Shown here: positions 9,501-60,474 of the stretch, piece by piece
Position numbering within the stretch: the stretch's first letter is position 1
Layout of the letters: every line of letters starts with the position of its first letter
NCBI GenBank assembly: GCA_976551045.1
Contig: CDPCPM010000239.1
Span: 9,424,001-9,488,000, forward strand
DNA: 64,000 bases
From: Glaucostegus cemiculus
Taxonomy: Eukaryota
Direction of reading: 5' to 3'
Translations under genes and position numbers: made by a program
The notes under the pieces: model-generated
The model's database searches: none
The model's input: the letters and a program-made list of their open reading frames with translations, nothing else
What the model was told of the DNA's origin: nothing

Positions 9501-12500
9501 AGGCAGTACGGTCTTAAGGTCAAGACCCTTAACAGTGTTGAAGAGCAGAGAGGCCGTGGGGTGCACGTCCATGACTCATTGGAAGTGGCTACACAGGTAG
9601 ACAGGGTGGTTAAGCAGGCTTATGGAATGCTTGTATTTATTAATCGGGGTATTGAGTATAGGAGTCAAGGAGGGGTGATCTGTTGGAAGTGTATAAAATT
9701 ATGACGGGCATAGAAAGGGTGGACAAGCAATATCTCTTCCCCATTATTGAGCGATCCAATTCCAGAGGGCATGCATTTAAGGTGAGAGGGGTTAGGTTCA
9801 GAACAGATGTGAGGAGTACGTTTTTTACTGAGAGAGTGGTGGATGCCTGGAATGCATTGCCTGATAGGGTGGTGGAGGCAAATTCATCGGGGGCTTTTAA
9901 GAGGGGATTAGATGGGCATATGAATGAGAGGAATATAGAGGGATGTGGGCATTCTGTAGGTAGGAGGGAATAGCTATGTCAGCCCAACATTATGGGCCGA
10001 AGGGCTTGTTCCGTGCTGTACTGTTCTATGTTCTTAAACATAAATTATACACAATTTTTACAAGAAAGAACACAATTAGAACAAAAAGAACAGAGTCCAT
10101 TTTAATTCAAAGTGATCATAGTGTTGCTAAATTGTAGTGATTAGAGAAACAAGACCCTTCCTGAAGAAGGGTCCTGACCCAAAACATTGACTGCCTGTTT
10201 TTCTCCATGGATGCTGCCTGGCCTGCTGAGTTCCTCCAGCATCATTGTGTTTTTCATGTAGTGCTTAAGGTTGTACCTGTTGGTTCAAGAACTGAATGGT
10301 TGAGAGAAATAGCTATTCATGGACCTGGTAGTGTGGGACTTCGAGTTTCTGTACCTTCTGTCTGATGGTAGCAGTGAGAAAATGGCAAGGACTATCTGGA
10401 ACATATTGTAAGATGCTTCTCATTAAGCTGATGACAATGGTTGAATCTTCATGGTTGCCAACTTGTATGCACAGCAGATAGTGCATAATCTTGAGACCTG
10501 CTCTATTGATTACAGCACAGTTCCTTCACGGCAGTTAATGCAACCATTATTTGAGCGCACTGATGGTTACTTCTGTCATATTGCATGTGGCATCATTGCA
10601 GCACCTGTTTCTCTTGTTTGTGTGAGTTAAATAGCACAGTCAAGTGCTATGTGGTGAGCAGCAGGCCCTAATCACCCCGTAGCCACTTTTTCATTTGCTA
10701 TGGACCCTCAGGTATAAATGACAAAGATTCTTCTTTTTGGCAGTTCTTTGGAGTTGAAAATGACTTGTTTCACCTCCTAGTTTTTTGGTTCTAAATTAGG
10801 TAAAAAGCAGCCCTTTGGGAGGTGCAGATTCAACTACTGGTAAGGTGGCTGGTTCTTGATGGGGAAGGTGGGTGAATAGGTATGGGAGCCTGCTTTTGTT
10901 TTTACACATGACTTCTGAATGCTCATGTCATTGTCTCAAGTTGTCTACAACAGGTTATAGAGAGCATGTGTCTTCCAGATAAGTAGTGTAAGGTTCAGCC
11001 TCTACAGGTACATGTAAATAAGCACCATGTGAACTGCCACAGAATGAAGCCATCATGGCTGCTGCAAAAATAGTGAAAATAACTGCATGTTTCCCCTGTA
11101 TATGGTCACATATCAGCTGGTCATGGAACAAGTAGTGTCCCTTTTGGTTGTAATACAACTCTGTGCTGATATTCAGTGCAATTAATAGCTTCCTGTACTG
11201 TGAGGAAGCCACCAGTAGTCACGGGGCTGTCTCTTCCCTCCATCTGCAACTCCCTGGCTAATGAATGATATGTATTTAATTTTCTTGGGACACAAGTGTC
11301 TGTGACCATCAATCCCCCACCCCCCTCAATCTCTGCCCCCACACCCCCTTATACAATAAGCAATAGAGTACTGCAGACTGACAAATGCTGCAGATATCTG
11401 TATCTTGTATATCTTGTACCTGGGAGGTATCACAACCTTGGCAAACCGATCTTCGTATGATTGTGATCAAAACTGCAGCTTAAGTATTTGGCAGTTCTCA
11501 ATGAAATAACTTTACGGAAGTATAAACACCTCCTCCAGTTCAGGAGGATTTCTCTTTGAAGACCTTGTATGAATATTGCCTGCCACTGAGAGCCCTTCTC
11601 CTCCTTGTAGTTATTCTTGTAGTAGTTTGTCTTGCTCGTTCTTCCTGTCATGTGGCACTCCTAGCGAAATGGTAACTAAAGGACCCTTATCTGGTTATTG
11701 CAGAAAACTTGAGCTCCCGGTACAGTACTTGCTTGCATCAAATCAACCTAGCAGAATAGTACATAATCTGCCTGCTCTGCTTACTTGCATCAGACATGAT
11801 TATTAGCCAGGTAACACCTTTCCAACATGATGATATACTAAAAATGTGCACATGTATTGCATATCTTATTGGAAGCAGATCAGCACGCAAACAACCAAAA
11901 GGACAGGAGTGGCACAGGTGCATTTTTCAATTGTGTGCCTATTAATTTTGCATTTTATCAGATTCTGCTATTAAAAGATTACTTCAGGTGCAACAGAACT
12001 AGAATAATTTCCCCCTCTCTACTCGGTGTGGAGGGATTTAACAAAACCACACTGTATAAAGATAGCCTGGAGACAGTTCATAATTTTGTTACATCATGAA
12101 GAGAGTTTACATCCAGAGTTATTTTGTTCTTTTTTACTATCGGGCATGTGGAATCCTAATTAAATAACTTTTTTTTTTACTCCTTAAGGTGTGGTTTCTT
12201 TGTAGGGTACAATTACTGCAGGCACCTTCTTTTATCTGTAAACTAGGATATCTGTGGCTAGCACTCAAGACTGGGAGGTCTATTTTTTTCTCATCTTTAG
12301 TTTAGGGCACTGAGTCCATTTGCACCGATACTCCATTCATCCCAATTCAGATAAGCTAACTCAGCATAGACTGATAATCAAAACCTTGGCCTTTTGATCC
12401 GTGTACCTCGGGACTATGCTGCATCACACACTTGCTGACCTCAGGGAAAGTTTATATTTGGCAGTGTATTATTGCAGCATTTATCACTGTCTGATTTGGA

Positions 12501-60474: not shown

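Follow-up and report, generated by a model that had tools for sequence, protein, structure and literature searches.

The stretch examined here, 64,000 nucleotides of the Glaucostegus cemiculus genome (contig CDPCPM010000239.1, positions 9,424,001 to 9,488,000; hereafter the window, numbered from its first letter), holds some 26 copies of a short dispersed repeat. We conclude that they are probably pLTRs, the 3′ terminal repeats of Penelope-like retrotransposons, left by two or three subfamilies that are now extinct. Each subfamily has a predicted minimal type I hammerhead ribozyme; the copies were likely inserted through target-primed reverse transcription and then decayed. Hammerheads of this minimal kind in the terminal repeats of Penelope elements are a class published in 2014, and the copies here are its fossils. 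A sequence-only reading of the same DNA had proposed a dispersed minimal-hammerhead family in Penelope-type terminal repeats; this is supported by our results and agrees with Cervera and de la Pena 2014 (PMC4209133). The window has a G+C content of 40.6%, a CpG observed/expected ratio of 0.24 and many decayed fragments of long interspersed nuclear elements (LINEs); the low CpG ratio and the decayed LINE fill point to a methylated animal genome.

A profile built from 8 seed copies was searched over the window, with the reversed window as control. It gave 26 matches at E ≤ 1, 23 of them at E < 1e-3, the best match in the reversed window having E 4.2. The match at 46656 (E 0.32) was removed and a weak copy at 34320-34420 added, so that 26 copies were counted, 16 on the plus and 10 on the minus strand. 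The repeat is present at all 14 positions previously named (13 loci, one being the pair 50825-/50900). Its hammerhead region is alignable in 16 of the roughly 26 copies; a covariance model of our own, run over the window, recovered these 16 training copies and no strong further copy. In a tree of 23 copies, subfamily A is a clade of 9 of the 23 rows with support 97/92 (bootstrap not fully settled), group B is looser, and the copies at 10160 and 58515 fall between A and B. The tree bears out the two subfamilies recognised earlier.

Taken column by column, the majority sequence of the 16 alignable copies has a 3-bp stem I, CUGAN-G, one spare base, a 5-bp stem II and GAAA-N-N-U-H, with the stem III loop absent. 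It fits the minimal type I hammerhead as defined in PMC4209133, single copies being mostly broken. Of 11 core positions, G12 counted, the majority base agrees with the published consensus at 10 in A and at all 11 in B. In subfamily B the first box, CUGANGA, is the majority at each position and is intact in 3/7 B copies as well as in the intermediate 10160; judged from its sequence, B belongs to the minimal-hammerhead class as published. The second box, GAAA-N-N-U-H, is the majority in both subfamilies and often broken in single copies. The extra nucleotide before G10.1 is A in 16/16 copies. At the pair closing stem II, G10.1 is kept in 7/8 A copies, with 11.1/12 reading TG in five, CA in two and CG in one, a CpG decay pattern; position 10.1 in B is G in two copies, A in three, T in one and a gap in one, and 11.1 is mostly T. 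Positions 15.1-16.1 are self-complementary in 2/16 copies. Subfamily A gives ACGU there once the CpG is restored, and the B majority is the non-palindromic ACAU (CA 5, TG 1, CT 1).

Almost all of the genomic copies are predicted from their sequences to be dead as ribozymes. CTGANGA, quoted earlier as the general motif of the family, is intact in only four of the 16 aligned copies (10160, 14960, 42935 and 58515), and the type example at 34662 has C at position 9 and GAGA for GAAA. The full core is found in two copies (14960 and 58515), and both stems as well only in 14926-14964 on the minus strand, a subfamily B copy (C3 14959, predicted cut 14931/14930) that is the sole one to pass the full minimal type I hammerhead descriptor, against no match in each of 20 dinucleotide shuffles. 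Its predicted fold is the hammerhead secondary structure, with stem probabilities of 0.93 and 0.96, yet its z-score against shuffles is -0.22; its positions 15.1-16.1 read ACAU, which is non-palindromic. That one or more copies, this one for example, have been retained as an active ribozyme used by the host is a reading to which we attach very little weight. The copy passes the descriptor and is predicted to fold as drawn, but a single intact copy in 16 is what decay of about 10% per site predicts, the core decays like the remaining positions (see below), the stem III region here lacks the palindrome, and minimal monomers did not cleave in vitro (PMC4209133).

Several results weigh against the hammerhead assignment. 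Searched with the Rfam hammerhead families, the window gave no match at E ≤ 1, nor did two short stretches of it at E ≤ 10. The folding energy of 8/9 sequences is no better than that of shuffles. Predicted homodimers pair chiefly through stem II and not through the stem III palindrome; folding therefore lends an active dimer no support. Among 500 shuffles the observed value was reached 286 times for pairs with both sides changed, 72 times for cells, 26 times for the covariation score and 10 times for percent paired, which is not significant, and kinship among the copies inflates even these figures. From five A-type copies RNAalifold predicted 30 pairs, in none of which both sides had changed, and the hammerhead fold was not recovered. 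Of the alignment cells in stems I and II, 77% are paired, versus 21-44% when the stems are slid. It is highly improbable that the repeat is an ordinary retroposon tail which looks like a hammerhead by chance or as the remains of a different hairpin. Such a view would account for the absent Rfam match, the non-significant covariation and the weak folding, but it sits poorly with the descriptor match set against 20 empty shuffles, with the core agreement of 10/11 (A) and 11/11 (B), and with the site of the repeat, 3′ of a GIY-YIG remnant, which is where published elements carry their hammerhead.

Compensatory change between the subfamilies had been offered as evidence for a ribozyme; tested by shuffling among the 16 window copies, it does not reach significance. 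The stem I swap from C-G to U-A is itself present in the sequence: pair 2.1-1.1 is C-G in 6 of the 16 copies, U-A in 5 and unpaired in 5. Positions 17/1.1 read TA in 5/7 B copies and never in A, so the swap is not a simple by-product of CpG decay. It is one event, on the branch between the subfamilies, and is not significant. The variation in stem II reported with pairing kept, agggc/gccct at about 22660, is rejected as covariation. It depends on a one-base register shift in a broken copy that has A6>G and A14>G, and the homologous columns 10.4/11.4 are C-C.

The part of the earlier interpretation that concerned decay by CpG loss stands. In subfamily A the CpG columns depart from the consensus in 27/64 cells versus 23/208 elsewhere; outside CpG, 7/72 core positions and 16/136 other positions are changed. 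Selection on the core was considered and rejected, since core and non-core positions decay alike. Decay is neutral and CpG-led, and the copies are unselected fossils.

Subfamily A departs from the published class at one core position. Position 9 is C in 7/8 A copies, T in 1/8 and A in 0/8, and the core reads CUGAUG-C-A, CUGAUGCA; in subfamily B it is A in 6/7, and the next base is A in 16/16 copies. With a background decay of about 11%, C in 7/8 copies implies that the parent element carried C there. A9 is kept in all 56 examples of the published alignment (Fig S3) and the published descriptor requires cuganga (PMC4209133), which renders subfamily A invisible to it. The CTGANGA motif is accordingly wrong for A, the larger and tighter subfamily. 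As its 8 copies lack the CUGANGA first box, subfamily A is, on sequence grounds, hammerhead-like by position and shape and not a strict member of the class. In the crystal structure the backbone turns sharply between G8 and A9, and A9 makes a sheared pair with the general base G12 (PMC11300833). Natural core variants exist, with none at the G8-A9 step in the available text of PMC3088659. Our literature search, which was thin on subscription papers and did not extend to Lunse 2017, returned no paper joining the CUGAUGCA core to a hammerhead; nor did it return a paper on a shark Penelope hammerhead, the single use of 'shark' being off-topic.

The A core would most likely hold an extra C between G8 and an A in the A9 role, making the sheared pair with G12. 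We take seriously, while leaning against it, the alternative that the A core is a true A9C loss of function, the ribozyme being dead already in the parent and transposition unaffected as cleavage is dispensable. The sheared A9-G12 pair (PMC11300833) and the 56 published examples with A9 (PMC4209133) speak for such a loss, as do catalytic mutants of an Anolis element that still insert (PMC11167929) and the existence of Naiads without canonical hammerheads (PMC8557442). On the other side, the A consensus with its CpGs restored keeps all other core bases, both stems and the ACGU palindrome, and the A adjoining G10.1 is still present in 8/8 A-type copies. A dead core would differ from our preferred account only in the activity of the A core.

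The link to Penelope is made by protein remnants upstream of the repeat. A 65-residue read-through of 33520-33714 matched one protein, P0002, at E 4.5e-5 in a search of representative sequences; P0002 carries a C-x4-CxxC linker and a YC..C..C..LYFGE motif. Its feature neighbours in the Atlas (score 0.84) are clusters with GIY-YIG (27% of members) and HTH_animal (18%), which we treat as a lead only. When P0002 was run by tblastn against the window, it matched 33499-33702 (+) at E 3.6e-9 and 57575-57744 (-) at E 2.4e-12, the best E in the reversed control being 0.64. The second remnant, absent from the sequence-only reading, reads VYC...C..C..LYIGET and precedes a B-type copy by about 250 nt. 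GIY-YIG endonuclease remnants, judged by tblastn and visible motif, thus stand upstream of the repeat, on its strand, at both loci. The CX2-5CxxC linker is complete in P0002 and partial in the window pieces. The evidence for a reverse transcriptase (RT) domain is a single 49-residue decayed piece, 31620-31766, without a Pfam match; by its motifs, 31612-31775 is likely Penelope RT. The end of an open reading frame (ORF) at 42330-42250 (-), which has a short match to 33815-33835, precedes a 478-nt untranslated region (UTR) and an A-type copy; partly on its motifs, it too is presumably Penelope.

Other searches argue against this assignment, or at least lend it nothing. Pfam on 9 + 1 + 13 pieces found only unrelated LINE RTs and no Penelope-type family. 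Three endonuclease or C-terminal queries found nothing in indexed homologue searches, the single match from the representative search has no name, and a PDB search gave no useful match naming any remnant. The Atlas gave no usable match for 33086-33409, with leads elsewhere all below 0.9. The assignment to the Penelope clade leans partly on motifs, and a Neptune-type label for the elements is tentative.

The repeat had been described as attached to Penelope ORF ends in two places. The attachment is clean at 41640-42330 (-), an A-type 3′ end in which the ORF C-terminus (42330-42250) is followed by the 478-nt UTR, the hammerhead (C3 41769, position 9 = C, G12>A) and a tail. At 31612-35110 a LINE and an LTR-like insert (LTR, long terminal repeat) intervene, and the copy nearest to the ORF remnant is the B-type copy at 34320-34420, not that at 34662. 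This region is a composite of an RT-like piece, an inserted LINE, an endonuclease remnant, a 410-bp LTR-like insert and then B, A and B copies; with these insertions and copies of two subfamilies, a single clean element is ruled out. From 5′ to 3′ it comprises the likely Penelope RT remnant at 31612-31775 (+), which reads YIND at a YxDD-like motif, has no Pfam match and is interrupted by the LINE; the unrelated LINE 3′ fragment at 31780-33081 (-, edges approximate), with Pfam RVT_1 pieces at 32288-33081 on the minus strand (E 3.6e-10 at 32710-33081); a broken Penelope linker and GIY-YIG endonuclease remnant at 33086-33880 (+), which includes the P0002 match at 33499-33702 and an ORF-end-like stretch at 33820-33875; and a solo-LTR-like insert of 410 bp at 33893-34302, foreign to the Penelope element, with TG...CA ends and near-identical 5-bp flanks. 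An insert of similar length (about 400 bp) at 44474-44869 is 90% identical to the last and also has TG...CA ends; the 5-bp flanking duplication is exact at 44474 and 4/5 at 33893.

Directly 3′ of the ORF remnant, four same-strand copies about 320 nt apart alternate B, A, B, A over 34320-35412. They are the weak B-type copy at 34320-34420 (+), with an internal deletion (E 0.48; 3/1000 and 19/1000 shuffles); an A-type 3′ fragment at 34518-34797 (+) with about 140 nt of UTR, hammerhead and tail (C3 34667, position 9 = C, A14>G, predicted cut 34694/34695); a B-type 3′ fragment at 34801-35114 (+) with about 185 nt of UTR and a decayed hammerhead (C3 34990); and an A-type 3′ fragment with UTR and no tail at 35219-35412 (+). 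The cluster possibly reflects repeated insertion into an element already there. A tandem retrozyme array was considered and rejected: there is none among 10 Tandem Repeats Finder rows, and the cluster mixes subfamilies. At the second GIY-YIG locus, 57185-57744 (-), the remnant (57744-57575) is followed by UTR and a B-type repeat copy whose core is deleted.

The arrangement of the copies (pairs, duplications and 3′ ends) is independent evidence for Penelope identity. Adjacent pairs are head-to-head in five cases out of five, an outcome expected once in 1024 under random orientation by our arithmetic. The best of them, an A-type pair at 50754-51044, is flanked by a 9-bp target-site duplication (null P 0.02) and consists of a tail-less copy at 50759-50856 (-) and a tailed copy at 50902-51033 (+), both starting 3-4 nt before C3; a spacer of about 45 nt (50857-50901) lies between the two 5′ ends. 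A second A-type pair at 47685-47920, with a tailed copy at 47692-47807 (-) and a tail-less one at 47806-47913 (+), is flanked by a 7-bp direct repeat that abuts the left end (null P 0.09). The remaining three are B-type: 14873-15075 (14873-14964 minus and about 14978-15075 plus, the latter with a tail), where no target-site duplication was found; 42834-43008 (42834-42941 minus with hammerhead, 42937-43008 plus, tail part only); and the degraded 53497-53656, with copies on both strands. That the search for a duplication was negative in 3/5 pairs counts against the insertion model. Measured from C3, the 3′ end of the A-type copies is at +91 to +95 in 4/9 copies, at +127/128 in 4/9 and at +137 in 1/9, and each of the two A-type pairs holds one tailed end (about +128) and one tail-less end (about +93), the tail being about 34 nt. 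Inverted pLTRs with a 30-40-bp tail are typical of Penelope elements (PMC8557442, PMC3846280, PMC8969392). We also observed an inverted repeat in the tail of the better copies, CAGATGCTG ... CAGCATCTG (34716-34785, for example), near the two 3′ end points and without covariation in five copies; modelling suggests that it may form a long conserved hairpin.

The 5′ ends of the copies are also clustered. Among 24 mapped copies (2 reference copies are left out of the mapping), 11 start at -6 to 0 from C3, 5 extend upstream and 8 start inside. Only 2/24, both of them weak alignments, have their start no more than 3 nt from the predicted cut, and insertion mainly from cleaved RNA is rejected on this count. 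In the 17 hammerhead-bearing copies upstream homology is absent in 10, present in 6 and ambiguous in 1. Tested against constant truncation, the clustering has a binomial P of 5e-8 if the rate is as estimated and of 0.015 if it is five times as high; under a stricter count, 6/13, P lies between 1.6e-4 and 0.18 according to the truncation rate assumed. What marks the boundary in the long copies is a polypyrimidine tract that closes with CAG 3 nt ahead of C3, the motif being TCAG/T. This TCAGT boundary resembles an initiator consensus. It also resembles a splice acceptor, and a donor-like GT at the ORF stop opens the UTR of the A-type copy with C3 41769. That UTR (42250-41773, minus) begins CAG/GTAA and ends polypyrimidine-CAG; with CAG at both edges, splicing would leave the same CAG before helix I. 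Among the upstream flanks in the window, inspected by eye, none joined the ORF end to the hammerhead as a spliced copy would. The pattern suggests that the clustered 5′ ends are run-off copies from a fixed RNA end and do not mark the cleavage site.

The clustering could in part be an alignment effect of the low-complexity UTR, with P values tied to the truncation rate assumed, and this tells against a fixed RNA end. We think it doubtful, all the same, that it is wholly an alignability artefact or ordinary 5′ truncation, with no start-site or acceptor role for TCAG/T. The UTR is 78% pyrimidine and hard to align, with truncation set at 0.03 per nt the stricter test yields P 0.18, and 6/10 of the clustered copies are members of inverted pairs; but the clustered copies have upstream flanks that are for the most part rich in purines, the pyrimidine fraction being 0.22-0.57 in 9/10 of them against 0.70-0.83 in the 6 long copies, and the flanks of clustered copies score as random against the references. 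It seems to us unlikely, too, that the short copies are a non-autonomous SINE-like (short interspersed nuclear element-like) or retrozyme-like derivative of the pLTR with its own 5′ end at TCAG/T, mobilised in trans by Penelope enzymes. Solo copies do end uniformly on both the 5′ and the 3′ side, retrozymes derived from pLTRs are reported in vertebrates, one cartilaginous fish among them (bioRxiv 10.64898/2026.07.22.740005), and pLTRs are mobilisable in trans (PMC3846280). Against this, tandem arrays of the repeat unit are absent in the window, solo and long copies are mixed within each subfamily on the tree, and the same 5′ end in both subfamilies is better explained by a shared mechanism than by a separate element.

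Our preferred account, insertion of Penelope terminal repeats by target-primed reverse transcription, would run as follows. The RT-endonuclease of the element would have nicked both target strands, and copying would have begun internally, at a site either about 93 or about 128 nt downstream of C3, giving tail-less or tailed ends; priming on both strands would give the head-to-head pairs. Copying would have passed through the uncleaved hammerhead and very often stopped just 5′ of stem I, most likely at the end of the template RNA or at a splice there, leaving solo copies. The parent ribozyme would cut slowly after H17, and only as a dimer or with the help of protein; it was probably not required for insertion. 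Subfamily A would have spread with its non-consensus C at position 9.

A bolder proposal, which we put forward only as a tentative possibility drawn from the sequence, is that a vertebrate Penelope subfamily spread with a working, rewired core, in which the spare base no longer follows A9 but stands between G8 and A9 (CUGAUG-C-A), and is missed by descriptors, leading to an undercount; and that the solo repeats of about 95 and about 130 nt are run-off complementary DNAs (cDNAs) copied from two internal priming sites as far as helix I, where the RNA would have a fixed 5′ end or a splice junction. If so, the run-off cDNAs would explain solo pLTRs and head-to-head pairs, and the start of a Penelope transcript could be mapped from genome sequence alone. 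A core variant fixed in a transposing subfamily would either be an active core of a new natural kind or provide evidence from nature that cleavage can be dispensed with. A fixed 5′ end beside helix I, with few starts at the cut, would be genomic support for an uncleaved RNA template and points to a start site or an intron. Both features bear on what the ribozyme does for Penelope elements. With one recognisable hammerhead per 4 kb versus one descriptor match per 64 kb, published counts are likely too low, as far as one window can tell.

The remaining copies are as follows. Two A-type solo copies with tails lie at 19180-19323 (+; C at position 9, 5′ end at C3-1) and 25895-26027 (+; 5′ end at C3). 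An intermediate-type copy without a tail at 10159-10253 (+) has an A9 core with G12>A, a CpG decay, and a 5′ end 2 nt before C3; the B-like copy at 58472-58600 (+) has a short UTR and the full core, its stem II being deleted (2/5 pairs). B-type copies lie at 17271-17377 (-; degraded, from profile match and end mapping), 18650-18830 (+; about 75 nt of UTR upstream, core G8>A), 20991-21110 (+; degraded, the homology of its upstream part ambiguous) and 22570-22682 (-; solo, core broken by A6>G and A14>G, stem II paired in a shifted register only), with tail-only copies at 56530-56606 (+) and 61214-61273 (-).

The window holds several features unrelated to the repeat. A stop-free LINE RT frame of 601 residues lies at 4724-6529 (-; Pfam RVT_1 E 8e-31), and a second 3′ piece at 38771-39355 is 94% identical to the 3′ part of this LINE, which makes it a comparatively young family. 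Further LINE fragments at 8982-10034, 28766-29472, 58675-59974 and 61628-61951 are about 70% alike, with RVT_1 at 58675-59514; they are CR1-like. A second dispersed family, SINE-like and about 300 bp long, is found at 7941-8149, 8410-8490, 16231-16509, 19850-20158, 36874-37157, 40573-40727, 56156-56491 and 62219-62477, and presumably resembles a cartilaginous-fish SINE. Two short open frames, 26791-27123 (+) and 109-243 (+), look exon-like by eye; neither matched in PDB, and 26791-27123 has no Pfam match. A weak Rfam mir-8510 match at 18245-18302 (28 bits versus a gathering threshold of 60) is a hairpin and probably chance.

The closest known system is the minimal hammerhead of metazoan Penelope-like elements (PMC4209133). 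Shared with it are the short stem I, a stem II of about 5 bp, the extra base before G10.1, GAAA-N-N-U-H without a stem III loop, U-rich flanks, and an occurrence mostly as solo copies with some opposite-strand pairs. Subfamily A differs in reading CUGAUG-C-A where all 56 published examples have A9, in an alignment from which cartilaginous fish are absent; the non-palindromic ACAU of subfamily B is matched there by one coelacanth example. With EN+ (endonuclease-bearing) Neptune-type elements (PMC8557442, PMC3846280) the window shares a C-terminal GIY-YIG remnant, part of a cysteine-rich linker, 5′-truncated copies, head-to-head inverted pLTRs, a 30-40-bp tail at one end and, in 2/5 pairs, target-site duplications of 7-9 bp; the ORFs here are all broken fragments. 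Animal non-LTR retrozymes (bioRxiv 10.64898/2026.07.22.740005) are likewise non-coding, pLTR-related repeats with type I hammerheads, but form tandem arrays with a hammerhead per unit, whereas the copies here are dispersed or in inverted pairs. Dimer-cleaving Penelope hammerhead variants (Lunse, Weinberg and Breaker 2017, as cited in PMC6765202) likewise have a diminished stem III.

For the element ends, two systems are informative. In the Drosophila virilis Penelope pLTR the acceptor of an intron lies at the 5′ edge of helix I (PMC2377424, PMC4209133), and here a polypyrimidine tract and CAG end 3 nt short of C3 and the ORF stop has a donor-like GT; the intron is 75 nt there (PMC2377424) and the candidate here 478 nt. 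Poseidon of Anolis, PAc, nicks both target strands, uses two internal RT start sites that define the tail, takes uncleaved RNA as template and can dispense with its ribozyme for insertion in vitro (PMC11167929). Its hammerhead differs in cutting only with protein and in overlapping the start codon, and the available text of that study says nothing of a 5′ end fixed at the ribozyme; PAc's two internal starts, nicking of both strands and uncleaved template fit the ends seen here.

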